Part shown: positions 414 to 14,121 of the stretch, piece after piece
Layout: every line of letters begins with the position of its first letter
Position numbering within the stretch: position 1 is the first letter of the stretch
Origin: Phycisphaerales bacterium
Lineage (GTDB): Bacteria > Planctomycetota > Phycisphaerae > WQYP01
Length of the DNA stretch: 64,000 nt
Assembly (NCBI GenBank): GCA_027451365.1
Contig: DAIDJN010000041.1
Coordinates: 89,679-153,678 of the forward strand
Direction of reading: 5' to 3'
Notes under the pieces: model-generated
The model's database searches: none
What the model was told of the DNA's origin: nothing
What the model saw: only the letters and a program-made list of their open reading frames with translations
Program-made: the position numbers and the translations under genes

Positions 414-2357
414 ATGGCCGCTTCGGAACTTTCCCCCGCCATGCCGGACGGCTTTGAAGCCTGCCCGTTGAGTCCGGAAACAGATTCGAGCGTGCGCTTC
501 TGTTTGGTTGTCCGAACCAGGGCGGATACGGTCGCCGGCTGGTTTCTTCCATTAGGTGAATCATTCGATTCGCGTACCTTTCTCGGCTGCCTGACCGACC
601 AGCGCGGCGCCGTGCTTCAATGGATACAAATTTGCCTGCAAACCACAGATATCGCCCATCAGGGGCCGGAAACCGCCGGTGAACTCTGGTCCAATCATCG
701 TCTGGACCTGCGCTGGCAAAATGACTGCAATGCCGGTGCCGATTCGCTGGCCCTTCGCGGCCAATGGGAATCCGTTCATCCGCTGCCCTTATTCTTTGAT
801 ACGGCGACCCGCAGGCTCACCACCCTTGTGGATGCAGATTCCGGGCAGACCTGGCGGCTTTGCACGAATGATGCCCTTCTTGCCTCTTGCGGCCTGCCAC
901 CGTATGCAACATCCATGTTCAGATATTTATATGTCACATTCAATGATGGCCAATCCCGCTTTCTTGCGGTTCAGGACGACGCCCCGCAGAATGAATCCGT
1001 CGCGCTTTTGCGCGATATAATGACCGCTGCCGGCCGCCGGCCGTGGAACCCTGCTGGCGGTTTGATGCGCGTCAGGCGATGGAACAGCATGGTGACCGAA
1101 GCGTTTCTGGATGTGCTCGCCGGATTGCCTTACTCCGCGAAGTCAGCCGGCAAAGTTCCCGCGGATTTTGACAATCTGGGCCGCATTCTTAAGGACACGG
1201 GCGAAACGCTCTCCGCGGGCACTGTTTTTCTTGGCCGCCATGGTCAGCGCGGGCGTATTATCGAAAGCCTGCACCTGAAACTTAAATTTCTGGCCGACGC
1301 CGTCGATTGCGTCCGCCGCTTTACACGCAGCGCTCACCGGCCACTGTTGAATCTGCGGGCGGAAAGCTTTCAAACGCATCTGGCCGCGCCCTCCGTTGCG
1401 CTGCCATTTCTCTGGACGGCAAGCCTTGAACTGGTTGATTTTGGTCATGCCATTGAACTGGACATTCCCGGTTCAGGCAGCGTGTTTACCGAAGGAACTC
1501 TTGCGTTGCCGGACGTTTACAAACCCGCCTTCGATACTCGGCCGCTGGCTACAGAAAGCGCGGTGCTTCGCCTTAGGTCGGTGACCGGCGAACCTGATGG
1601 AACCTGCATCGTGGATGGCACATTGGCCAACCTTGAAGGAATCGTGCCGCAGCCGTCCGATCTGGTGTGCGTCCGCGTGGCCTTGGCCGACCAGCGTATT
1701 CTGCTGACCGGCTCAGCGGAAACGCAATCCGCCCTGGCTGCCGGCGAAGTGCGCTTTAGATCCAATCGTTTCCCGTTGTCAGGCGAACAATTAACTGCCA
1801 TGCAGGCCGCGCAGGGCACGGCGCTTCAGCCGGTGCGATTGCAATGCCTTCCGCGGAAGGACAGCGCCAGTGATCTTTACGCCCTGACGGTCCTGGCTTT
1901 GCGGGCACTCGTCGTGCATCCCGGCAATCCGCTGCCGGTTGCGGTGGATGAGCTGCGCGGCTTTGTCGCCCAGATTGCCCGTGACTTTTCCGCGGACAAG
2001 TCGCTGCCCCAGCGCATTGCCGAACTGCTTCTGGCTGATGAACGGTGGAACAAGTCTCTTGGTGCCCAGAACGTTTTTCCCGGACTGCCCGGCGACGATT
2101 CCGCCGGCGAATTGATTCCCGCCGTGCTTTGGACGCATGTCCTGGCACTTCTTGTGCGCATGGTGCCTGCGGCCGGCCCTGACAGTTTTTGCCGCGCATA
2201 CGGTATAATGCCGCCCGCCGGAATGGCCGGCGCGCTGGATCCCGTGGTCGATGTGTTATCTCGGCTCTTGATTCAGACCAGAAGCCTGATTGTAATTGAC
2301 TGGCAGGTGAACCGTGAGGTACACGCCGTGATTCGCCGATTTCAGTTGGGATTGTAG
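414..2357 (+). CDS. Hypothetical protein (647 aa), first gene of the pseudokinase/Hsp70 locus
   Basis: Long ORF with coding-like GC3 bias. No recognisable motifs. Antisense ORFs in the track (1756..2199, 1791..2138) are judged spurious. Confidence 0.55.
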   Translation: MAASELSPAMPDGFEACPLSPETDSSVRFCLVVRTRADTVAGWFLPLGESFDSRTFLGCLTDQRGAVLQWIQICLQTTDIAHQGPETAGELWSNHRLDLRWQNDCNAGADSLALRGQWESVHPLPLFFDTATRRLTTLVDADSGQTWRLCTNDALLASCGLPPYATSMFRYLYVTFNDGQSRFLAVQDDAPQNESVALLRDIMTAAGRRPWNPAGGLMRVRRWNSMVTEAFLDVLAGLPYSAKSAGKVPADFDNLGRILKDTGETLSAGTVFLGRHGQRGRIIESLHLKLKFLADAVDCVRRFTRSAHRPLLNLRAESFQTHLAAPSVALPFLWTASLELVDFGHAIELDIPGSGSVFTEGTLALPDVYKPAFDTRPLATESAVLRLRSVTGEPDGTCIVDGTLANLEGIVPQPSDLVCVRVALADQRILLTGSAETQSALAAGEVRFRSNRFPLSGEQLTAMQAAQGTALQPVRLQCLPRKDSASDLYALTVLALRALVVHPGNPLPVAVDELRGFVAQIARDFSADKSLPQRIAELLLADERWNKSLGAQNVFPGLPGDDSAGELIPAVLWTHVLALLVRMVPAAGPDSFCRAYGIMPPAGMAGALDPVVDVLSRLLIQTRSLIVIDWQVNREVHAVIRRFQLGL

Positions 2358-2415
2358 CCCGTCGCGGAAATCCCGCTTGATCCCGCGGCCATCCATAAAT
2401 TGAAAGGTCTGCACT

Positions 2416-2952
2416 ATGAAGTCACTTTTTAGCGTCAACAAACTTGTGTTCGCGCCGACGGCGGCATTTATGCTGCTGCTCGCCGGCTGTTCCCACGGCC
2501 CAATTGACCGCAACATGAGTCTTATGCTCGGAAAAAGTCTGCGGGCCAATCAGCAATCCACCAGCACCATTGCGGTGGATCTGGTCGGCGTGAATGCCAC
2601 CGATTACCAGCGCTGGTTCAACTATTCCATGACCGCCTATTTCACCGCGGGCGACCTTTTACGCGCGGGGGCTGACAAAATTACGCTTAATTTCACCCCT
2701 GGATCGGCTGCCACTATTGTGCTTTCCAAGGATAATCCGGTCTGGAAACAGTGGAGAGCTGATGGAGACACTTATATTTTTGTGCTGGCCCAGTTGCCCG
2801 GTATCCGACAGGATATGCCCGGCCCGCAGGACCCTCGCCGCCTGATTCTGCCACTGAAAAAATCCCGCTGGCCGGATTCCGCCAATCCAATCCGAATTTT
2901 GATAAAAAACAGCGGCGTGGTGTGTGAAACCCCGCCAAAATCCAAGAATTAA
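2416..2952 (+). CDS. Lipoprotein (178 aa)
   Basis: N-terminal signal peptide ending in the lipobox LLAGC|S (MKSLFSVNKLVFAPTAAFMLLLAGCSHG). Confidence 0.65.
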   Translation: MKSLFSVNKLVFAPTAAFMLLLAGCSHGPIDRNMSLMLGKSLRANQQSTSTIAVDLVGVNATDYQRWFNYSMTAYFTAGDLLRAGADKITLNFTPGSAATIVLSKDNPVWKQWRADGDTYIFVLAQLPGIRQDMPGPQDPRRLILPLKKSRWPDSANPIRILIKNSGVVCETPPKSKN

Positions 2953-3002
2953 CCCTCAAAGAACGTAACGGCGCTTCATCGCGCCGGGGCGGGAATGACC
3001 TG

Positions 3003-6000
3003 GTGCCCAACTTCGGTTCATATCAGACCGATCGCGTGACAGGCCGACGGGCCGACGGATCACTGCACACTTTGCCCGACCCTTCCCAGTGCTTGCTGGC
3101 CTTTGAACCGCCCGCTGATTTACTTTCGCCGGTCCGGCTTCACGCCGCCCAGTCAAACTTTATTGCGCGGTTTGATTTGCAGCGTACCGTCGCTGAAGGT
3201 TCGACCCGTTGGGCAAAAGTGTTCGATCTTGAGCCGCTGGAGCCTTCCGGCGCATTTTGTGTTATGGAAAGGCTTGATTGGCCGCTCGTGCGGCTGATCC
3301 GTCTGCGGGTCGCACCGTCACCGGCGGACCTTTACCGGTTGGTCACGGAAGTTCTTGAAGCGCTTCATGACGCGCAGAATCTGGTGGGCCGAAGCCACGG
3401 AAATCTGCGGGCGGAAAATATTTTTGCGTCCAGCGGCACATTGGCCGAAGCTCGCATTGTGCTGGTCGCGCCGCGTGCGTCGGTTTTCAATTCCACTAAA
3501 GCCGCATCAGATGATCTGGCCCAGCTTGGCCGCATCATCTGCGAACTTGTGGCTTCCCGCCGCTGGACTCCCACCACGCCGCTTGATCCGGGAATGGCGG
3601 AATTTCGCCAGCTTGGGGCGATCGGCCGGCGCTGGACTGAATTCTGCCGCTTTCTGCTGAATACCGATATTCACGCGGATCAGCGTTCTATCTTTTCAGC
3701 GCTGACCATGGCCGCAAAACTTAAACCACGAAAAAGTCGCGCGCCGATGGGAATCGGGATTACGGCGGCATTGATGCTTATCGCGGCGGTCGTGGCCGGT
3801 TATATTCACCACCGGCGGACACTTGAAGAAATGTCCCGTTTTAACGGGGCTTATTCCGCTTATAACACTGCCTGGCACGGCTGGTTTAAAGCCTTTACCC
3901 AAAACAAAAAACTTCTGGCCAGCGTGCCGGAATTTTCGCAGGTGAGTGCCGCACTTAAAGGTGGTATTGTCTTAAGCCCGAATAATATTCTTCACGAATT
4001 CACCGGACTTCTTTCGCCCGCCCAGATTCAAAAGGATCTGGCCAGCCATCCACATGAAGCCCAGCGACTGGGGCTGGCTGTGGTGCTGCTTATGCGCACC
4101 GAACGAATTCTCGGCAATATCCACGGAAAATTGATCCATCAGCAAAATCAGTGGAATTCCCGCGGCTGGCGGCGGGCCTCCGCGGACCTTTACGCACGCG
4201 GTGCGGCCCCGGTCCTGCCGGATCAGTCCATGGTTCCATTTTTGCGGCTGCACAGCGCGGCTTGGGCTGTCAATCCAGACCTGCGGAAGCTTCAGCTTAC
4301 GCCGGACGGCGTTTCGGCTGCGCAATGGTTCAGGCAAATTGCCGCCGCCGGCCAGGTGTCCGGAATCTGGTCACAATTATCGCCTGTTCTCAAGAGCTTT
4401 GCCGCCGACTCGCACCGATCTGTCGCTTCATTTGATCCTTACGCGAGCCGGTATCTGGCGTCTGCGTCAACCCCGGATATTCTGCTGATGCGACAGCGGC
4501 AGTTGCTGCGGGTTGCCCGGCGTCAGGCCACAGCGCTGGCCCGCTATGGCGGTTCTATACGCTGGGACCTTGTCGCTGCGCTCCCGCCGCGCAACATGCA
4601 ACTTCCGCCTGATAAGTATTTTCCGAATCTGGCCGACTATCGGGTTTTGGCCGGCAACGACAACGCCTACCTGCGACTTAAGCCGCAATTTACTGCCGAT
4701 GCGGCGCTGGTCCGCAGCGGAATTGCCCATGCCATGCGCCTGCCCAAGCCGCCCACTGTCAATTACCTAGCCGGATTGCGGGTGGCGGAAAGGAATTTCA
4801 GCCGCCTTTCCGACCATAATCTCTGGATATGGAAAAACCGTGCGATATTGGACAAACAAGCCCAATCGGCAATTCAGCGGGTGCAAAATCTGCATCAGTC
4901 CGTGACCGCATTTATCAATTCCCAGATCAATGTGCGGAAATGGGTGGCGCAATTGCTTGGATTGCATCTGGCATCGCAAAACTATCCGGTTAATCCGAAC
5001 GCACTGGTCATTTCCACGATTCCGGCAATTAACGCTGCCTACCTGGCCAAAGTGCGACGGATTCTTTTTGCGCCGGCCCCGCCTCCCGCCATGGCTTTAG
5101 AAGCGAATGTGCAAAGTTATAATCTTCTGGTCAGCTCCCTGCGGCCGCGCCGCTGGCGCATTCCGATTTTAACCGCGCGCATCACCGCTGTTCGCAATGC
5201 CCTCACACACATCCTCAGGAAGGATTTTCCAGCCGGTCTGTCAGATTCCGCCGCTCAACTTTCCCGTCCATGGAACCAGCAGTTGTTGCAGGCGGCGATT
5301 CTGCCCGCCCGTGCTTCAGCCGTCAGGCAGGCCATGCGGACGCTTCACTGGAATGACCTGACGCCCCAAATACAAAGCAGCGCCGTCCAAAGCTGGTTAT
5401 CGCGTCACAAGGCCTTCGAATCGCTGGTCATTAACTTTAACCGTATACAGGATGCGTTGAATGAATGTCGTCTGCTTAACGCATCGCTGCCTGGGGGCGG
5501 ATCCATCGCCCGACTGTATGCCCAGGCACGCGCTAATATTTGGTGGACCAATGCGGCAACCGCGCGAGCCTTGGCCCCTCAGATCGCGCTTTTGCGGCGT
5601 TTGGAACAGATTCATTCCGCCGCAATACCAGCGCTTTCCGTCGCCTGGAACCGTATCATTGCCGCCCATCCGGTCCAGCCTTTGCTGATCCGGGCAATCT
5701 GGCAGCGGCTTGGATTGGTGGCTCCCCAGCCGACCGCGAATTTGATGAACCTGGAGCATTCTCTGCCGGACCGATTGAAAGCCGCAATTGCCGCCGATTC
5801 TCAAATTTCCGCTGCGCGCAAAGCGGCCCTTCAGCACCTGCTGGCCGATCAATATCGTTTGCGCTGGCAACAGCGGATGAACGCTGCGGTGGGTGCAAGC
5901 CAGGTGAATCGAACTCTTGTCGCCGCCGCGGATTATCAGATTACTCTGTCGAAAGCTCCCGGTCTGACGGAATTCTCCACTCTGTCGGAACTTCGTCCGC

Positions 6001-7310
6001 GGGCGCAATTGAATATTCTGGTGCGGCAGTTTGCCGCAGGGGCCCAAGGCATTACCACGCCGGCCGGGGCCAGGGCTGCCGCCGCGCACATGCAGGAGGT
6101 GCTAACGGGCGCTTTTTCCAGACCCGGCTGGGCGAAACTTTCATCCAGTCCGCGATTGATCCAATTTCAGGAGGCCCTCGAAGGCATCTTAAAGGCGAAT
6201 CCGGCGCAAGCCCGCCAGCCGGCCGGGCCGGCTCTTGCCGGATGGAAACAGCAGAAACTTCCCAACCATGCCCGTCTGTTTACCAGTCCGTCCGGCCACC
6301 GGAAGTTGACCTTTGTTTTGCTGACGCCACCAGGACATAAACGATTTTATTTATGTACCACAGAACTAAGCGTGGGAATATTTCTTTCGGTGTTGAATTC
6401 CAGTTCCAGTTTAATCCATCGGCCATCCAATTCATTTTATAATCTGATCAAGCCGAACGGCAATTATTTCGGTCCGCATACCTGGGTATACCATCAAAGC
6501 GTCGGACAGGTTGAAATGGCCAAGTCCTGGTTTACGAACACCAATCAGATTTACAACGCGCCGCGCTATAGTTCGGCGCTGCAAGCCGCCGATGGCAAGC
6601 GTTTAAGCCCCGCCGCCGGTGGTCCGCCCCGGTCTGACGATCCGGTTAATTATCTGCCGCCGCAGGCGGCGGTTTATGTCGCGGCGCTGCTCGGTTGTCG
6701 ATTGCCAACGTCCGCTGAATGGCGGTATGCGTGGCGGGAAAAAGGCTCTGGCTCCCGGCCGCATCTGGCCGGCAAAACATTGGCCGGTTATGTGCAGTAT
6801 CTTAAACGTGTCAATTCATCGAAGGATGCCCGATTGCCCACTCCCCGTTACTGGGACCTTTATAATTATTCCGCCCCGGACCTGGCCGCATCGCTTCACT
6901 CATACGGTCCTTCGGCCAACCCGATTCTCTGGTTTGAACCGGTCAGCGGCGCGGCCCGGTCGCCTGCGTTTATACATTTGACCGGCAATGTGGCTGAATG
7001 GGTGTTTGACGATACCCAGGCATATTCCAAAGCGTTCAAGGGCTGGATCAAAACGCCCAAAGCCCTCAACAGCGGTGCTGTTCAGGCACTTTTCACACCT
7101 GCCGCTCTCAAAATGGTTTATGTGATTGGCGGGTCATGCCTTTCACCGCTGGGAAAAACCGCGCCGGACAAGCCGATCCCGATTAACTGGCACCTGCGGC
7201 GGACGCGAAGAGGCTTCGCGGATGTCGGCATGCGGCTGGCTTATCAACCGCGGGTGCTTACCCCGCAGGAACGCCTGGCGCAGCTGATTGGCGGCGATTG
7301 GTATTTCTAA
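3003..7310 (+). CDS. Large membrane-anchored protein: N-terminal degenerate Ser/Thr protein-kinase-like (pseudokinase) domain, one TM helix, long helical middle region, C-terminal FGE-sulfatase (SUMF1/formylglycine-generating-enzyme-like) domain
   Basis: Kinase catalytic-loop-like 'HGNLRAENIF' with the catalytic Asp replaced by Asn and no DFG motif. Subdomain IX-like 'SDDLAQLGRIICELV'. TM segment 'GIGITAALMLIAAVVAGYIHH'. C-terminal FGE motifs 'LPTSAEWRYAW' and 'HLTGNVAEWVFDD'. GTG start at 3003. Confidence 0.7.
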   Translation: MPNFGSYQTDRVTGRRADGSLHTLPDPSQCLLAFEPPADLLSPVRLHAAQSNFIARFDLQRTVAEGSTRWAKVFDLEPLEPSGAFCVMERLDWPLVRLIRLRVAPSPADLYRLVTEVLEALHDAQNLVGRSHGNLRAENIFASSGTLAEARIVLVAPRASVFNSTKAASDDLAQLGRIICELVASRRWTPTTPLDPGMAEFRQLGAIGRRWTEFCRFLLNTDIHADQRSIFSALTMAAKLKPRKSRAPMGIGITAALMLIAAVVAGYIHHRRTLEEMSRFNGAYSAYNTAWHGWFKAFTQNKKLLASVPEFSQVSAALKGGIVLSPNNILHEFTGLLSPAQIQKDLASHPHEAQRLGLAVVLLMRTERILGNIHGKLIHQQNQWNSRGWRRASADLYARGAAPVLPDQSMVPFLRLHSAAWAVNPDLRKLQLTPDGVSAAQWFRQIAAAGQVSGIWSQLSPVLKSFAADSHRSVASFDPYASRYLASASTPDILLMRQRQLLRVARRQATALARYGGSIRWDLVAALPPRNMQLPPDKYFPNLADYRVLAGNDNAYLRLKPQFTADAALVRSGIAHAMRLPKPPTVNYLAGLRVAERNFSRLSDHNLWIWKNRAILDKQAQSAIQRVQNLHQSVTAFINSQINVRKWVAQLLGLHLASQNYPVNPNALVISTIPAINAAYLAKVRRILFAPAPPPAMALEANVQSYNLLVSSLRPRRWRIPILTARITAVRNALTHILRKDFPAGLSDSAAQLSRPWNQQLLQAAILPARASAVRQAMRTLHWNDLTPQIQSSAVQSWLSRHKAFESLVINFNRIQDALNECRLLNASLPGGGSIARLYAQARANIWWTNAATARALAPQIALLRRLEQIHSAAIPALSVAWNRIIAAHPVQPLLIRAIWQRLGLVAPQPTANLMNLEHSLPDRLKAAIAADSQISAARKAALQHLLADQYRLRWQQRMNAAVGASQVNRTLVAAADYQITLSKAPGLTEFSTLSELRPRAQLNILVRQFAAGAQGITTPAGARAAAAHMQEVLTGAFSRPGWAKLSSSPRLIQFQEALEGILKANPAQARQPAGPALAGWKQQKLPNHARLFTSPSGHRKLTFVLLTPPGHKRFYLCTTELSVGIFLSVLNSSSSLIHRPSNSFYNLIKPNGNYFGPHTWVYHQSVGQVEMAKSWFTNTNQIYNAPRYSSALQAADGKRLSPAAGGPPRSDDPVNYLPPQAAVYVAALLGCRLPTSAEWRYAWREKGSGSRPHLAGKTLAGYVQYLKRVNSSKDARLPTPRYWDLYNYSAPDLAASLHSYGPSANPILWFEPVSGAARSPAFIHLTGNVAEWVFDDTQAYSKAFKGWIKTPKALNSGAVQALFTPAALKMVYVIGGSCLSPLGKTAPDKPIPINWHLRRTRRGFADVGMRLAYQPRVLTPQERLAQLIGGDWYF

Positions 7311-7461
7311 TCGGCGGCTGGCCGCTCTGGCCGACCGCCTGCCAATCTGATGCCCGACGTTCAGCGCGTCATCTTAGGCTTAATCTCGCCGCACGGTCGA
7401 ATAAATCGGTTGGAACCGGCAACCCGCTAATTTCAACGGTTAAATTCAGCTTTTCAGCAAT

Positions 7462-7535
7462 TGCGCCCGGCGGGAGTCGAACCCACAACCGTCCGCTTAG
7501 AAGGCGGATGCTCTATCCAGTTGAGCTACGAGCGC
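7462..7535 (-). tRNA. tRNA-Arg (anticodon TCT); CCA not encoded
   Basis: Reverse complement is GCGCTCGTAGCTCAACTGGATAGAGCATCCGCCTTCTAAGCGGACGGTTGTGGGTTCGACTCCCGCCGGGCGCA. It folds as a cloverleaf: 7-bp acceptor stem, D-arm GCTC..GAGC, anticodon loop CUUCUAA, T-arm GTGGG-TTCGACT-CCCGC. Confidence 0.9.
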
Positions 7536-7894
7536 TTCGGCTGCTTAAAATGTAAACGAAGCGGGGTGGCAAAGCCAATGGCGGGGTGGCGAACGCCGTG
7601 GAGCTATGCAAGCCAACCTCGCCGTTCCCTTTTTTTTGCCGCAGGCCAAAATATACGCCAACTCCGCAAAGCAGGAAAGGATGTGTGATTCGGTCCGCTG
7701 GCGGAACGATTGATCGCAGCTGCGCCGCGCTGCAAATAAAGTCGGTCCATCTGCCCGGAAACGCGATGATGCAATGGACTGGCGGCCCTGAATTTGCATG
7801 GCATTTCCGCTTCCCCACCATTCATTTTTTGTCCGCGTTGAAGTATACTTCTTAAGATTCGCTGGAGCGATATTCATGGCCAGGGAGTTGATAA

Positions 7895-9301
7895 ATGTTA
7901 TTGTCGCTGTCTGAAGATATGCTGGCGAATCCTTACCGAGTGATCGGTTTGCCCGCGGGTGCCGGACAGAATGATATCGACCTTGCCGTGCGGCGGATGC
8001 GAATATGGAAAAGCCCCGCGGACATTCCACCCACCCCATGGGATTTTCCCCAATTCGGTCCTGTTCCCCGCGAAAAGGCGGATTTGGAGCGGGCGGTCGG
8101 ATTGCTGATGAATCCGGCAACGCGGCTGGTGGCGCGAGCCTGGTGGTTTACCGCACTGCCAGGTGAGTTAAATACGGTCGCGGCTAAAACCGCCCCGGCG
8201 GCCGGCGTATCATTGCGTGCCTTGCAGGCCCATGACAAGGCGTTGACGTGTTTATTTGATCTGGCAAAAAAATCGCCGGATGTTTCCCGCAACCATTTAT
8301 CCTGGTGTGCGGCATTGGCCACTTTGGGCGTAAGCCTGCGTGCGGAAGATTATCTGCGCTGGTCGGCAGGCGTTGAGGTGACCGGAGCCGCCGAAGGTTT
8401 TGAAAAGGCCGCCAGTCCACAGGAAATAATGGATATACCCCAGTCATGGGCGTTGGCACTGTTGCCCAAACTGCGCAACTTCTGTCACAACGCGTACGAT
8501 GCCAGCGCGTTTGATCAGTCGGTTGCATTTATCCGTCTGGCCCAACAGACGAGTCGCGACCATCCGGAAGCCATGCATTTGCGGAGCACCATGCTGGAAC
8601 TTATGGAGCGCAATTTGCTAATCAATTGCCCGCGCGTACAGAATTTTATATACCACGGGATTCCATGGAAACGGTGGGAAAAAATTTTTGTTGGGCGAAA
8701 ATCCCGCCAGATATGTCGCCAGGCGGAGCAGGAGATTGAGCAGACGCTTTTACCTTTGTATCGGGCCTTCATCAAGCTTCAGGCACCGGAGTATCACGAC
8801 ACGCGAGCTGTACAAATCGCATTTAACGCGATGGTACGCAATATGGCCGTGGGCTGGTCGCACGTAGGCGCCACTGCCAATGCGCGCCGCTGGGGTGCCT
8901 TATTACAGTCGGAATCGCGACAACCTCTCACCGTGGGACGACGCTTGTTGATGAGTCTGCGGTCAAATCGAGTATCGTGGACAGTGTTAGGTGTCATCAT
9001 CCTGGGCGTTGCATCGAATCTGTTTAATCAATCGCCACGCGACACTTATTTTCCGCCCCGGCCCTATTACAATCCGGCCCTGCCCCATGCGCCGGCTCGT
9101 CAAAACATGCTCTCTGGCAATGCGCCTCAGCCTGCGGTCTCGGATGGCAATAAGGCTGCATTGCCATCTTACATCCGGCCACGCGCCTCACCACCTGACA
9201 TTTATCATCCACCGGTTTACTCTGGCGATACATCCCAATATCACCTGCCGCCAATGGGCGGCTGGGCACCGGCTGGTATATCACGACCTGGTGCCAGATA
9301 A
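7895..9301 (+). CDS. J-domain-like membrane protein with Pro-rich C-terminal tail (468 aa)
   Basis: GGAG RBS 7 nt before the ATG. N-terminus 'NPYRVIGLPAGAGQNDIDLAVRRMRIW' resembles J-domain helices II-III, but the HPD tripeptide is absent. TM segment 'VLGVIILGVASNLF' is followed by a proline-rich tail. It ends 32 nt before the Hsp70 paralogue. Confidence 0.55.
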   Translation: MLLSLSEDMLANPYRVIGLPAGAGQNDIDLAVRRMRIWKSPADIPPTPWDFPQFGPVPREKADLERAVGLLMNPATRLVARAWWFTALPGELNTVAAKTAPAAGVSLRALQAHDKALTCLFDLAKKSPDVSRNHLSWCAALATLGVSLRAEDYLRWSAGVEVTGAAEGFEKAASPQEIMDIPQSWALALLPKLRNFCHNAYDASAFDQSVAFIRLAQQTSRDHPEAMHLRSTMLELMERNLLINCPRVQNFIYHGIPWKRWEKIFVGRKSRQICRQAEQEIEQTLLPLYRAFIKLQAPEYHDTRAVQIAFNAMVRNMAVGWSHVGATANARRWGALLQSESRQPLTVGRRLLMSLRSNRVSWTVLGVIILGVASNLFNQSPRDTYFPPRPYYNPALPHAPARQNMLSGNAPQPAVSDGNKAALPSYIRPRASPPDIYHPPVYSGDTSQYHLPPMGGWAPAGISRPGAR

Positions 9302-9333
9302 TCACCATCGGATTTTTGAAAGGCTGTTCGAAG

Positions 9334-11873
9334 TGAGCGGAAGTGAATATTATTTTGGCATAGACTTAGGCACCACCAATTCCAGTATTTCGCTTTGTCT
9401 GGACGGGCAAGTGCGGGTATTGCCCAACATGGACGGTGATCAAATCACACCTTCGGTGGTCCATGTGGATGAACTTGGCGTTATTCGCATCGGACGTCAG
9501 GCGTATGAATCTTGGGCGGTGGATCCGGCCAATACCCAGGCTGAATTCAAACGTTGGATGGGCTTCTCCGATGAGCTTGCTTTTCCCGCATCCGGGCGCA
9601 GCATTTCCGCGGAGGAACTTTCCGCCGAGGTCCTTAAATCTCTTTTGGCTGATGCCCAGCGGCACACCGGAGTGCGGCCCGAGTCTTCTGTGGTAACCGT
9701 TCCCGCCGCCTTCGGACAGTTGCAATGTGAAGCCACCACCCGTGCCGCCGCCCGTGCGGGACTTAAGATTGCACCACTGCTTCAGGAACCCATTGCCACA
9801 GCGATCGCCTATGGGGCGGATCCAACCGCTGGTGATCAGCGTTGGATGGTGTTTGATCTTGGTGGCGGCACGTTGGATATTGCCATAGTCTCCACGCGCA
9901 ACGGGCGACTGGCGGTGCTGGAACACTGCGGCGATAACCGCCTTGGTGGAAAAGATATGGATCGCGCGATTGCGTCGGATATTTTTATTCCCGCACTTGC
10001 CGGCGGCTTTACACTGCCGGATCAACAAAAGCAGCCAGCGGCCTTTAATCAATTATTTCGCCGGTTGGTGCGGCACGCAGAGATAGCAAAAAAAGTGCTT
10101 TCCACAACCGATTCCGCGAATATTTCCCTGCTTGATCTGGGCGTGGACAAGCAAGGGCGCCCCATGCAGATGTCGCTTACGGTGACACGATCTCAGATGA
10201 CCGCCGCAATTCAGCCACTCCTGGATCGCTGCCTTAGCCTGGCGCAACTGGCACTCACCAAGGCGCGTATGACCGCCAGTGGCCTGACGAGTGTCATTGG
10301 TGTCGGTGGGCCTGCCCGCATGCCCTGCATTCGGGACATGCTGGAGTCCAGCATGGGCATTGCAATGCGCTGCGACCTTGATCCAATGACAGTGGTTTCC
10401 CAGGGTGCGGCCCGATTTGCCGCCGCCAGCGATTGCCTGGGCGCGACTGGATTATCCGAAACGGATCAACCAGCGACCAGTGAAAGTGCTTCCATAAAAG
10501 TTCCTATTTCAATTTCGCATGAACGGTCCAGTGCCACGGTCTTATCGCCGGTAGGTGGCACGGTCCCGTTATCCGCGGGCATTGCAACTATCCGGTTGAA
10601 AAGGCGTGGTGGAAAAGTCGAATGGAACAGCGGCTTGATTCCTATTGTCAGCGGCCAGTTTTCCACCACTTTAAAATTGGATGAAAAAGCGGCCGTCACG
10701 CGGTTTGTTATTGAGGCCTTTGGCAAACAGGGTCAGGCTATTCCCGTTGATCCTTCCGGCTTTTCAGTCGCGTTGGCCATGCCGCTGGCCGCCGCCCCGC
10801 TTCCGCATACCATCGCGGTGGAATTAACCGACGTGCATGGAAATACTGTGTATGAGCCGATTTTTCAACGTGACAGTGCGCTGCCCGCGGAAGTCACCCG
10901 CAGCTATAGGGCGGAGGCGTCGCTGCGGCCCAGTGAGCCGGAAGGTCGTTTGCCGATTAAATTCTGGGAAATAGATGTATCGGAAGATACGTCAGAGCGC
11001 TGGTGGTGCGGCTGTGTGGAAATTTCCGCCACGAATTTAAGCCGTCCTGTTTCCGAAGGTGCGGAAATACAATTGAAAATCCGTATCGATGCATCCCGCA
11101 AGATTCATGTCAATGCCCATATTCCCTCGATTCATCAGACCTTTGCGGAAGATGTCTATCTGCCGGATCCGCCATCGGCAAGTTCTCATTTGCAAACACA
11201 GCTTGATTCCTGTTTTGACCGTTTACGAAGCGCCTGGCAGCGAATCTATTCCTCCGGCAAAGATGATTTGAAACCAACGTTAACCCGGATTCAGGAGGAG
11301 CTTGACGAAATGGCTTTGCAGACCGGATCGGTCATAGGGGCATCGCGCCGCATCGACCCGGATGTATTGTTGCGTCAGGCCGGGCTGCTGCGCGGGATAC
11401 GCATAAAACTGACGCACGTGGAAGAACAGTTGGTTTCAGAAATTGATCATGTGCTGCTGGTTAGAATTCAAGGCATCATGCGATTTACAGAGCAAATATG
11501 CCATGACCACGGCGATGCCGACGAACAAAAGCAATGTGCGGACTTGCGGCGGCGCTTTAACGGCTACAAATCTACCGGAGATTCCCGTGGCGTTCGCTGG
11601 ATTGAAATAGAACTGCGCCAATTGCAAAATCCGATACTCGAACGCATGCCCGAATACTGGACAGAGTGGCTTGAGGCGCTTAATTCGCCGGGGCGGTTTA
11701 ATTTTATTTCGCGACGCGAGGCGGACCAATGGCTGGGCAAAGCCAACGCGGCGGAGAAAGCAGGAGAGCAGACGGAAATGCGCCGGTGTATTCGCGCCTT
11801 ATGGAGCCTTCTACCCGATCGCGATCAGGCGGCACGCAACCGCGATTCGCAAACGGGTTTGCGGGGCGGATAA
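9334..11873 (+). CDS. Atypical Hsp70-family ATPase (846 aa) with non-canonical C-terminal half
   Basis: Hsp70 nucleotide-binding-domain signatures 'YYFGIDLGTTNSSISL' (phosphate-1) and 'VFDLGGGTLDIAIV' (phosphate-2). GTG start at 9334 after AAAGG. The ORF-track start at 8991 is an upstream artefact that overlaps the previous gene. Confidence 0.8.
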
Positions 11874-12332
11874 ATAAATCAGTCACTTGTCTGGCTTTAG
11901 CGGATGACTTTTATGGCTGGTGGCGGACGAACGCGGATTGCCTATGAATAACACCGCGACGCTGGTCCGCGGACCTTCGCGGAATCACCTGACAAATAGA
12001 CAATACATGATTAAATCAAAGGGTTTGTGCAAGTGGAACAATATTGCCGGAATTACGAAATATTTAAATGGTTCTCGCGAAGAATCGTAATACGTGGGTG
12101 GCCTGCGGTCGAGGTATCATTGATTGACAGTGTAGGAAATGGATCGCGACCGGTGTCTGCAAATAGCCCTTTCTGCCTTTCGGCATAAGACAAAGTGGAT
12201 TTTAAGCTCGCCTCGTCGCCGCCCGCGCGTTGACCGCAACCAGAAAAAAGTCTAGTTGAATGCATTGACAGAACCAATAGAATTTGGGTACACTTATCAA
12301 CGTCTTATCTAGTTTCTAGTATATGTTTTGGC

Positions 12333-13493
12333 GTGCGGAGGTGCGGTATGGAAATGCGTTGGTGTGTATTTTCCGGTCTGACTTTGGCTGTCTGGGGCGC
12401 TCAACCGACCTTGGCGGTAACTGCAAAGGCAACAACCGCGGGGCCGAGCGATGCGGCATTTTCCAACAATTCCGGCGGAGTGGTCAATGTGGCCGCTTAT
12501 AGCGAAGCCGCGGGAATTATGAATGCCTCGGTTACGCCGTCGGAAACGCTTGGCGGTGCCACAGTTCCAGTGGCAAGTTCTTCTTACGGCGTCGGCATTA
12601 CGAGCCAGGCAATAGCAGTTCCCGGCCCGATGAAAGTAAACCAGTTCGGATATTTGCGGCAAAGCTATACATTTCAGAAGCCCGTTGCCCAGATTAAACC
12701 TGTGAACAAAAGTTTACTGAGTTTCCCCGGCGATCAGGTTTCCATCACCTCGGAAACGGAGGGTTACACCGGTTTTGCGCAGGTCGAAAATGTCACCAAC
12801 CCTTTAACCGGCCAGGTTACTCCCCGTAATGCCGTGATCGCCGAGGCCAGCGTGCCCGATGGTGAGGTTCCTCCGGGTGATGCCGGCGCGCTTGCTGGCG
12901 ATCCGATTTCCATCCCAACAGGTACCTACAATTACAACCCCACAATTAGTTGCTCAATAACCGACAACACTTCCGGCGATGAGGCTGTGGCGCAGACTTA
13001 TGCGGTTGATGCATCCACGTTCACGTCCGATTCGCTGGACAATTTCGGGCTTGACGGCATGCCCCTGTCCCAAACGCTGTGGTATGTCACGGTGGGGGAG
13101 GCGGGGCCAGTGACCAGCGCCGGTTCGCTGGCGAAACTGGAGATTGATTTCGAGCTTAATCCGCTGGCGCTTAAGGAAATTACACTTCCGCAATCGTTTC
13201 TCAATTCCCTGCCGGCCTTTACAACTACCGCCCAGGAAATCGCGGAAATAAATCAGGCCGTCGACAACGCCATCGCCAATGGGATGGCGTTCAGTGGAAA
13301 TCAGGAAACGCTCAACGGATTCGATCCGTTTCCTGTCGGCACTACCTACAGCCCGCTTTCCAATAACCAGGCTTATGGAGACGGAGCCGCCGCCGAAGTG
13401 GCCGCTCCAGTGCCAGCTTCCATCTGGCTGATGGGATTTGGAACTTTGGTTCTGCTGACGCGGAAATCGCAGACTCGTATAAAGTGTTCCTGA
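12333..13493 (+). CDS. Secreted protein with PEP-CTERM-like sorting tail (variant VPAS)
   Basis: Signal peptide. C-terminus 'APVPASIWLMGFGTLVLLTRKSQTRIK' has a PEP-like motif, a hydrophobic helix and a basic cluster. Confidence 0.55.
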   Translation: MRRCGMEMRWCVFSGLTLAVWGAQPTLAVTAKATTAGPSDAAFSNNSGGVVNVAAYSEAAGIMNASVTPSETLGGATVPVASSSYGVGITSQAIAVPGPMKVNQFGYLRQSYTFQKPVAQIKPVNKSLLSFPGDQVSITSETEGYTGFAQVENVTNPLTGQVTPRNAVIAEASVPDGEVPPGDAGALAGDPISIPTGTYNYNPTISCSITDNTSGDEAVAQTYAVDASTFTSDSLDNFGLDGMPLSQTLWYVTVGEAGPVTSAGSLAKLEIDFELNPLALKEITLPQSFLNSLPAFTTTAQEIAEINQAVDNAIANGMAFSGNQETLNGFDPFPVGTTYSPLSNNQAYGDGAAAEVAAPVPASIWLMGFGTLVLLTRKSQTRIKCS

Positions 13494-14121
13494 TATTTGT
13501 ACCGTAGCGGCAGGTCGCCTGTTCCGCGACGGGCGGCCATAAATGCTTGCCATTGCGTTAGTCATTTGTGTTCTGACGGATCGGGGATTATCGCAGGATC
13601 GCCAAGTGTATTCGCTCGCATTATTCCCTTTCGTGGCACGGTATTGGCAATCACTTCTGTTTACATTTGGTTTTCGTTCGTTGCCATAATTGGCGGCTTT
13701 TGATTATTCGCGATTATTATTCTTTGGCCAAATGTTGAAAATGGGTTGCATAAGCGGCCGGTTTTCCAATTGGCCAAAGAATTGGCGATCCCCATAGTTG
13801 AAACTACGAAGCGCCAACAACAATGGTATTTAACTGCGTTTGGCGTTATAAACAACTGCGGGCAAAGCCATCTGTGGGGCCGCAAAGGCATAATACAGGC
13901 CGCGTTTATCAGGCATTGAAGTTCGTTTTGCACTTCGTTGCCACAGGCTGCAAATACCGTAGCCGATAGGTGAAAAGCCTAATGCCAGGATGGCAATATT
14001 CGGAGTCGGCGTCAGGCAGGAATTCGTAGGGCTTTTATCGAGAAAATTCCAATGGCGTGGATCGCTCCAAACTGGAATAATAACCATCATGGAAGCCGGG
14101 AATGCGAGAAGCGGACGGTTT

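Follow-up and report, generated by a model that had tools for sequence, protein, structure and literature searches.

The window analysed here, 64,000 nucleotides of a Phycisphaerales bacterium (contig DAIDJN010000041.1 of assembly GCA_027451365.1), contains near its start five genes coding for a hypothetical 647-aa protein, a small lipoprotein, a 1435-aa giant protein, a J-like membrane protein, and an atypical Hsp70. An earlier note had treated these genes as a single system, with the other three proteins forming a membrane complex to which the J-like/Hsp70 pair is brought. Comparison with related loci makes it probable that the window instead carries two unrelated cassettes, adjacent only in this lineage, which meet at a synteny breakpoint at a tRNA-Arg gene. 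Cassette A comprises the first three genes, and cassette B, which consists of the J-like gene and the Hsp70 gene, would encode a membrane-tethered Hsp70 machine.

For the synteny analysis 84 loci centred on the Hsp70 gene were collected, 79 of them from species-representative genomes by use of the paralogue-specific C-terminal half of the Hsp70 and five from look-ups of the contigs of two Hsp70 homologues and of a J-like relative with 73% identity. Open reading frames (ORFs) were called in all loci and searched with the five window proteins; counts out of 85 refer to the 84 loci plus the window. BLASTP homologues of the J-like protein were found in 51 sources (50 loci and the window). Homologues of the 647-aa protein, the lipoprotein and the giant protein were found within 10 kb on either side of the Hsp70 in none of the 84 loci, neither by BLASTP nor by family hidden Markov models (HMMs), and the only ORF retrieved from these loci by the HMMs of the giant-protein family was one ordinary-sized kinase. 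In addition, three contigs with homologues of the giant protein were examined (L088, L089, and L090). In all three a lipoprotein homologue is located directly upstream of the giant gene, with 79%, 63%, and 44% identity, respectively. Only in L088 are the lipoprotein and giant genes preceded by a homologue of the 647-aa protein (60% identical), the respective place in L089 being occupied by an unrelated 746-aa gene. The genes on the 3' side are unrelated (PEGA, a secreted protein, or an integrase island), and no J-like or Hsp70 gene was found beside the giant genes in the available flanks of the three contigs. To look for co-occurrence of J-like, Hsp70, and FGE-pseudokinase genes across genomes had been proposed in the earlier note; the orthologues proved to be scattered and not syntenic, which contradicts a single five-gene system.

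The place where the two cassettes join was located by comparison with L001, the locus with the closest relative of the J-like/Hsp70 pair (73% identity of the J-like protein, ~83% DNA identity over the pair). This locus has kept the tRNA-Arg upstream of the J-like gene, the pair itself, and the downstream genes. On the far side of the tRNA, where the window has cassette A, it carries an unrelated 806-aa gene together with a GH35 gene and others. In a blastn alignment the homology starts at position 7462, the 3' end of the tRNA (9325 in L001), and covers the pair as well as the cytochrome c and radical-SAM genes downstream of it. As cassette A does not co-occur with the chaperones in either the Hsp70-centred or the giant-centred loci, and as homology breaks at 7462, the five genes are best described as two cassettes joined at a variable site. 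Cassette A, left of 7462, is lineage-specific in comparison to L001, and the 3' end of a tRNA is the usual position for the insertion of islands. No integrase and no attachment repeat are visible inside the window; the attachment repeat of an island could not be demonstrated because the tRNA 3' end occurs only once in the window, the far end of such an island being expected ahead of coordinate 1. A 99% identical contig, L086 (GCA_021852225.1), starts at window position 7839, with 56 nt left before the J-like gene. The break in this assembly thus falls between the tRNA and the J-like gene, as would fit a variable region. In the JGI soil contig L089 (7464-13100) the giant homologue is followed by a tRNA-Leu and then by an integrase/Prim-Pol/HTH (helix-turn-helix) element, and cassette A therefore adjoins a tRNA there too, with a mobile element beside it.

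Cassette B proved to be widespread. With an iterated HMM the J-like gene was found directly upstream of the Hsp70 gene and on the same strand in 75 of the 85 sources, and in eight of the ten remaining sources the Hsp70 is located at a contig edge. The hosts belong to at least eight bacterial phyla (Planctomycetota, Acidobacteriota, Cyanobacteriota (Melainabacteria), Myxococcota, Pseudomonadota, Elusimicrobiota, Armatimonadota, and Bacillota) and include one archaeon, Methanoculleus, so that the occurrence of such paralogues in PVC (Planctomycetes, Verrucomicrobia, and Chlamydiae) genomes, which had been noted before, is correct but too narrow. A third small gene (~115-135 aa) accompanies the pair in 71/85 sources, as a rule between its two genes; examples among loci L003-L084 are 8426-8794 in L013 and 9619-9975 in L004. 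The profile of this third gene yielded GrpE (4ani, E=0.032) as the only match in the PDB, over the region preceding and including the beta domain, and the Pfam GrpE model gave weak matches to two of eight members in the same part of the model. These matches suggest that the third gene probably encodes a mini nucleotide-exchange factor, an assignment made with low confidence. In the window and in L001, L002, and L006 no GrpE-like gene was found even by a six-frame search with hmmsearch --max; here the Hsp70 gene follows the J-like gene directly. Judged from gene content, cassette B belongs, with only two genes, to a widespread operon family with the normal order of J-like gene, small GrpE-like gene, and ~840-aa Hsp70 gene. 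From the earlier view of a specialised Hsp70 machine at a membrane complex the dedicated membrane-associated pair is retained, with the upstream J-like gene described above and a transmembrane (TM) segment in 64 of 69 J-like homologues, while the tie to the pseudokinase, lipoprotein, and 647-aa genes is lost.

Two loci of this family have an unusual composition. In L063 (4436-8506), from an alphaproteobacterial metagenome-assembled genome (MAG), one uninterrupted ORF joins a full-length canonical-type Hsp70 (Pfam HSP70 positions 1-599, 886 bits) to a J-like region. Behind it lie the GrpE-like gene and the 840-aa-type Hsp70, which yields two Hsp70s in one operon. L077 (7198-11431) of Methanoculleus chikugoensis has a GrpE-like gene and an 846-aa Hsp70 with no detectable J-like gene, and the ORF upstream resembles another protein of the sugar-kinase/actin fold. 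The presence of the GrpE-like and Hsp70 genes in this archaeon suggests horizontal transfer.

The J-like protein is not recognised by the standard domain model. Pfam DnaJ (PF00226) matched neither the window protein (E<=0.1) nor any of ten homologues (E<=1). A profile from 29 sequences, in contrast, gave 38 PDB matches at E<=10, almost all of them J-domain proteins aligned through helices I-III, the best ones being 2cug (2.6e-5) and Thermus thermophilus DnaJ2 (5.4e-5). The N-terminal ~85 residues follow the family pattern N-A-Y-R-v-L-G-L..A.q.eI..AA..mRR...LG-x7-D-x-P-x-LG...R.E.d.r.A.gRL..P..R...RLFWF. The HPD tripeptide is found neither in the J-like domain of the window protein nor in that of 29 to 75 homologues. 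The loop between helices II and III, ~23 residues long with a near-invariant D50 and G55, reads WKSPADIPPTPWDFPQFGPVPRE in the window protein and LG-x7-D-x-P-x-LG in the family consensus. An AlphaFold2 (AF2) model from 24 sequences had a mean pLDDT (predicted local distance difference test) of 61, with helices 13-17, 25-37, 61-72, and 74-86 at pLDDT 60-80, a pattern consistent with a J fold; the remainder is all-alpha and of low confidence (residues 85-220). Foldseek found J domains only as local, non-significant matches of this model (2dmx, probability 0.94, E=1.4).

The family HMM spans ~300 residues in 69 homologues, and weak TPR_10 matches were obtained in relatives for the helical region beyond the J-like domain. 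About 30 residues past the J-like domain an invariant H113 and a near-invariant D114 (HDxAL; window 8231-8236) are seen in all 33 aligned proteins, a candidate functional motif which might compensate for the missing HPD. The TM-like segment mentioned above follows this conserved region. As a cluster of arginines precedes it, the J-like part would be cytoplasmic (N-in) and the Pro/Tyr-rich tail, with 19 prolines in the C-terminal 93 residues, is probably outside the cytoplasm. The lack of HPD, the TM segment, and the Pro-rich tail had all been noticed before and were all found. What lies past the TM segment varies by lineage. It is Pro-rich in the clade of the window and in other Phycisphaerae-type loci, a rhodanese in many Pyrinomonadaceae (where the protein is annotated only as "rhodanese-like"), and a coiled coil elsewhere. 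The J-like protein of L054 (2882-8347, an Obscuribacterales MAG) has 1821 aa and an N-terminal GYF domain; that of L046 (3285-6695, a Bacillota MAG) has 1136 aa, and the J-like segment matches twice within this ORF. A word-indexed search with the J-like protein alone returned only the protein itself and the relative with 73% identity, and a 33-sequence profile returned 26 proteins, 24 of Pyrinomonadaceae type and the others being the window cluster and the same relative. Because these searches returned so few proteins, the size of the family was taken from the Hsp70-centred loci.

The Hsp70 partner is an 846-aa protein with a clear nucleotide-binding domain (NBD), which matches Pfam HSP70 (PF00012) at 2.5e-64 over residues 8-363 and DnaK NBD structures of the PDB with E of about 1e-51 to 2.8e-51. 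More than 110 full-length homologues (~835-890 aa, 38-87% identity) were listed, and 113 family sequences were aligned with Escherichia coli DnaK, the numbering of which is used here. The residues of the ATPase site, D8, K70, E171, D194, T199, and D201, are invariant in all 113 sequences. The surface to which J domains dock is changed: arginine 167 is replaced by proline in 110/113 sequences, accompanied by N170Q, T173I, E206S, D208R, a deletion of 209-212 with loss of D211, and E217A or N. Arginine 151 is a cysteine in the family. The VLLLD linker is missing in the alignment; a variable Ala/Pro/Ser-rich sequence and then an inserted beta domain are found in its place.

For the C-terminal 492 residues an AF2 model from 66 sequences reached a mean pLDDT of 85.8. 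It contains, in this order, a disordered connector, an extra beta domain, a beta-sandwich, and ~225 residues of helices. Foldseek matched the beta-sandwich to the substrate-binding domains (SBDs) of DnaK, Hsp70, and HscA with E down to 6e-9 (probability 1.00; 121 matches at E<=1e-3), and PLPHTIAVE, LPAE, and LPIKFWE are conserved motifs of this domain. The lid helices, mostly with pLDDT >90 in the AF2 model, are conserved across 112 homologues. A complete NBD had correctly been predicted; the roughly 450-aa C-terminal region which had been called noncanonical turned out to be ~480 residues with the extra beta domain, a genuine beta-sandwich of the SBD (SBD-beta), and an extended lid. Sequence and model hence suggest a working ATPase with a peptide-binding SBD. 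The extra beta domain has no detectable similarity to the SBD-beta which follows it (hhalign probability 0.9%), and its origin as a duplicate of the SBD-beta was rejected for this reason. An assignment as orthologue was likewise rejected for DnaK (TIGR02350, 233.1 bits versus a cut-off of 822.55) and for HscA (TIGR01991, 219.3 bits versus 708.55).

In canonical pairs the aspartate D35 of HPD bonds with R167 and Q378, the histidine H33 with the backbone of L391, and the basic helix II docks to E206, D211, and E217 (PMC8215388). As HPD is missing in the J-like protein, and R167, the acidic patch, and the linker are lost in the Hsp70, both sides of this interface have changed together. This joint change is the main argument for a co-evolved noncanonical pairing, and together with gene order the view of the J-like protein and the Hsp70 as a dedicated, membrane-associated pair is supported. 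In the mechanism proposed, the J-like protein would be located in the inner membrane, its J-like and ~230-aa helical domains facing the cytoplasm and its variable tail outside. It would recruit its cognate Hsp70 to the membrane via a rewired interface which replaces the contacts of HPD with R167 and of the basic helix with the acidic patch. The Hsp70 might then work on a restricted set of membrane-proximal clients, with the helical domain or the external tail selecting clients or sensing conditions, and the mini-GrpE-like factor would reset the cycle in most lineages. Since the GrpE-like gene has been lost in the clade of the window, intrinsic nucleotide exchange is presumably used there, as is thought for HscA and HscC. 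A more detailed version is offered only tentatively: the pair may represent a natural case of HPD-independent Hsp70 control with a co-evolved interface instead of the contact considered universal, in which the D50/G55 loop and H113-D114 face the R167P exchange and the lost acidic patch and VLLLD linker, and in which a variable extracytoplasmic module (Pro-rich tail, rhodanese, or coiled coil) is coupled to a cytoplasmic Hsp70 to form a transmembrane-controlled chaperone switch.

A rather doubtful alternative, still the strongest of those considered, is that the J-like protein does not drive the ATPase at all and is a passive membrane anchor or regulator, comparable to Pam16 and ARC6, or even the main client of the Hsp70. 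The missing HPD is what one would expect for such a role, as mutations of HPD abolished stimulation of the ATPase in every system tested (PMC8215388). The loci of the operon family encode no second, HPD-bearing J protein, which also fits a passive role. Against a passive role, the Hsp70 has given up R167 and the acidic patch as well, a loss which makes docking of canonical J proteins in trans unlikely. The strong conservation of the J-like helices, D50, G55, and H113-D114 also speaks for a specific functional surface and against a passive protein.

A role of cassette B in stress-triggered or anti-invader conflict, with the Hsp70 as switch, is improbable. It could explain the C-terminal modules of the J-like protein which vary by lineage (Pro-rich, rhodanese, and coiled coil, to which the GYF domain may be added) and the patchy taxonomic spread with inclusion of an archaeon, and Hsp70, GrpE, and DnaJ-fusion themes do occur in GAP1-N2 GTPase-centric conflict systems (PMC7159879). 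The PADLOC defence models, however, gave zero matches to the five window proteins at E<=0.1, clustering of the loci revealed no conserved GTPase, vWA, or effector neighbour, and a chromosomal context of housekeeping genes is shared with relatives. Least tenable is the five-gene system of the earlier note, for which one may cite the adjacency and common orientation of the genes in the window and the single-pass membrane topology of both the giant and the J-like protein, and which is very hard to reconcile with zero co-occurrence in 84 Hsp70-centred and three giant-centred loci, an antisense tRNA and ~585 nt between the two gene groups, the synteny breakpoint at the tRNA 3' end, and a different neighbour at that place in the closest relative.

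Several points weigh against the interpretation as two cassettes with a membrane-tethered Hsp70 machine. The loci are mostly MAG contigs with ORFs from our own simple calling, and the synteny of cassette A is based on three contigs, two of them short. A lineage-specific functional link between A and B is conceivable in this organism. E values of ~1e-5 and a model of mediocre quality underlie the J-domain assignment, that of GrpE is weak, and we infer the physical interaction of the J-like protein with the Hsp70 from gene order and matching sequence changes only.

Among known systems the nearest analogue in logic to cassette B is HscC with DjlB and DjlC of E. coli, which is likewise a specialised non-heat-shock Hsp70 paralogue encoded beside its own membrane-associated class-C J proteins, although its defining features are not found here. 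HscC is likely to target membrane proteins and does not need GrpE (PMC8215388). HscC has 556 aa (HscC-type Hsp70s 550-580 aa), whereas the window Hsp70, at 846 aa, contains an additional beta domain and a long lid; identity of its NBD to HscC (32%) is no higher than to DnaK (33%). DjlB and DjlC carry HPD, and the J-like protein has no significant match to them. Unlike the GrpE-free HscC system, most members of the cassette B family do have a GrpE-like gene. Membership in the HscC family was rejected on Hsp70 size, NBD identity, and the absent similarity to DjlB/DjlC.

With the canonical DnaK-DnaJ-GrpE system most relatives share three functional roles in one operon, and the catalytic residues of the NBD and the SBD fold are conserved. 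In contrast to it the Hsp70 scores far under the DnaK equivalog cut-off, HPD, the R167/E206/D211/E217 set, and the VLLLD linker are absent, and the J partner is a TM protein with neither the zinc finger nor the client-binding beta domains. The putative exchange factor has only ~125 aa and is absent in the clade of the window. J-fold proteins which lack HPD are known from mitochondria (Pam16/Tim16) and plastids (ARC6). They are membrane-associated, thought to be regulatory or tethering rather than ATPase-stimulating, and either work alongside an HPD-bearing partner (Pam18) or function apart from any dedicated Hsp70. The J-like protein of the window differs from these in being the sole J-type protein in its operon and in that its Hsp70 has changed along with it. 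Bacterial "DnaK derivates" such as those of Myxococcus xanthus resemble the window Hsp70 with a conserved NBD and an altered linker and C-terminus. Deletion of noncanonical Hsp70s in M. xanthus caused mild phenotypes in sporulation and oxidative resistance (PMC8265645). The operon of J-like, GrpE-like, and Hsp70 genes and the rewired interface, in contrast, are not described in the reviews on these derivates.

Bacterial Hsp70 paralogues beyond DnaK, HscA, and HscC are acknowledged as unexplored (PMC13580251). A description of a J-like/GrpE-like/Hsp70 operon or of its HPD-less partner was not found in the literature searched, which comprised open-access papers and bioRxiv only. Within this group cassette B appears, from sequence comparison, as a specialised Hsp70 system with a concrete and widely conserved operon. 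The HPD-less membrane-anchored cofactor stands out since HPD has been needed in every J protein tested so far. If the pair does work together, it would represent a second mode of coupling between J-type cofactor and Hsp70 and would indicate a membrane-proximal task for these paralogues. At the same time a false lead is removed, as the pseudokinase-FGE cassette does not belong with the chaperones and is better investigated together with its lipoprotein.

The giant protein of cassette A belongs to a family with 388 representative clusters at E<=1e-3 in an exhaustive HMMER search, mostly of ~1400 aa; an exact look-up of the window protein gave no record. Simple sequence analysis indicated a single TM segment. 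A profile of the N-terminal 245 residues of the family matched 512 solved protein kinases, the best one being StkP with E=5.5e-9, and Pfam Pkinase was found in 3/32 family members. The catalytic loop HRDLKPxN is HGNLKPSNVL in the family, with the catalytic aspartate gone, and HGNLRAENIF in the window protein. The beta3 lysine, usually present in the family (VK), is a phenylalanine in the window protein (LLAFEPP), and DFG is LTDPA in the family and LVAPRA in the window. All three catalytic motifs are thus lost, and the alignment of kinase residues which had been suggested earlier does not turn the protein into an ordinary Ser/Thr kinase. At the C-terminus FGE-sulfatase (PF03781) was matched weakly in the window protein (residues 1191-1338, E=2.9e-4, 21.0 bits versus a cut-off of 23.3) and in 27/32 family members, with 6.5e-14 as the best value. 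The family consensus contains no conserved cysteine pair in the equivalent region (VIGGSALSPP...SDVG.RLAF), the position of which we take to be that of the catalytic pair in human FGE, and no template repeat of the type used by diversity-generating retroelements (DGRs) was found for this domain. The domain looks noncatalytic, as had been assumed. As kinase homology with lost motifs, FGE-sulfatase matches in most family members, and the lack of the cysteine pair go together, the label "pseudokinase-TM-FGE-like" is correct.

Kinase/FGS fusions of Planctomycetes and Cyanobacteria have the same arrangement with an N-terminal kinase-type domain before a C-terminal FGS (FGE-sulfatase) domain. In these the FGS domain is regarded as a ligand-binding, nonenzymatic module and the kinase is always ahead of it (PMC7159879). 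The giant family differs from them by HGN in the place of HRD, the window protein by the absence of all three motifs and by its small lipoprotein partner, and no vWA, MoxR, GTPase, or DGR component is found near the giant gene. For the 647-aa protein no match was obtained in Pfam, NCBIfam, PADLOC, or PDB sequences, and for the 178-aa lipoprotein (lipobox LLLAG, then C) there are no relatives among PDB sequences. Judged from the three contigs, the conserved partner of the giant protein is the lipoprotein and not the chaperones. Cassette A probably serves in sensing or scaffolding at the envelope, and the 647-aa gene at its upstream end is lineage-specific.

ORF calling and ARAGORN found the five co-oriented plus-strand ORFs, the last of which, the Hsp70 ORF, extends to 11873, and the antisense tRNA where they had been reported. 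The features of the two cassettes are collected in Table 1. The most plausible start of the Hsp70 is the GTG at 9333 with GAAAGG ahead of it, which is 31 nt past the stop of the J-like gene, so that the gap of 32 nt given before has to be corrected. In the five proteins Pfam and NCBIfam recognised only the Hsp70 NBD and the subthreshold FGE-sulfatase of the 1435-aa protein. The tRNA was the sole Rfam match, and promoter and terminator scans gave no excess over shuffled controls.

Table 1. Features of the two cassettes, with positions in the window.
Feature	Position	Strand	Basis or remark
Cassette A	414-7310		647-aa protein, lipoprotein, and 1435-aa giant protein
647-aa hypothetical protein	414..2357	+	ORF call; loosely tied to cassette A, outside the chaperone module
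178-aa lipoprotein	2416..2952	+	lipobox FMLLLAGC; conserved partner of the giant protein
1435-aa giant protein	3003..7310	+	pseudokinase aa 1-245, TM aa 246-270, long helical region, FGE-sulfatase-like C-terminus
tRNA-Arg(TCT)	7462..7535	-	ARAGORN; Rfam tRNA 67.8 bits
Cassette B	7895-11873		J-like membrane protein and Hsp70
468-aa J-like protein	7895-9301	+	
J-like domain, aa 8-86	7916..8152	+	profile homology to solved J domains; AF2 helices
All-alpha conserved region of J-like protein, aa 87-318	8153..8848	+	family HMM; AF2
TM segment of J-like protein, aa 360-378	8972..9028	+	hydropathy window
Pro/Tyr-rich tail of J-like protein, aa 379-468	9029..9298	+	composition
Hsp70 nucleotide-binding domain, aa 1-364	9333..10424	+	Pfam HSP70; PDB DnaK NBDs
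Extra beta domain of Hsp70, aa 393-481	10509..10775	+	AF2 strands, high pLDDT
Hsp70 substrate-binding beta-sandwich, aa 493-609	10809..11159	+	AF2 and Foldseek
Hsp70 extended helical lid and C-terminal helical domain, aa 615-840	11175..11852	+	AF2 helices

Downstream of cassette B an ORF at 12333-13493 codes for a Ser/Thr/Ala-rich protein of 386 aa with no Pfam match, which has a signal-like N-terminus and a C-terminal hydrophobic helix with a basic tail and is PEP-CTERM-like. The segment which holds this ORF, 11875-13846, is an insertion in comparison to L001 and is present in the 99% identical contig L086.

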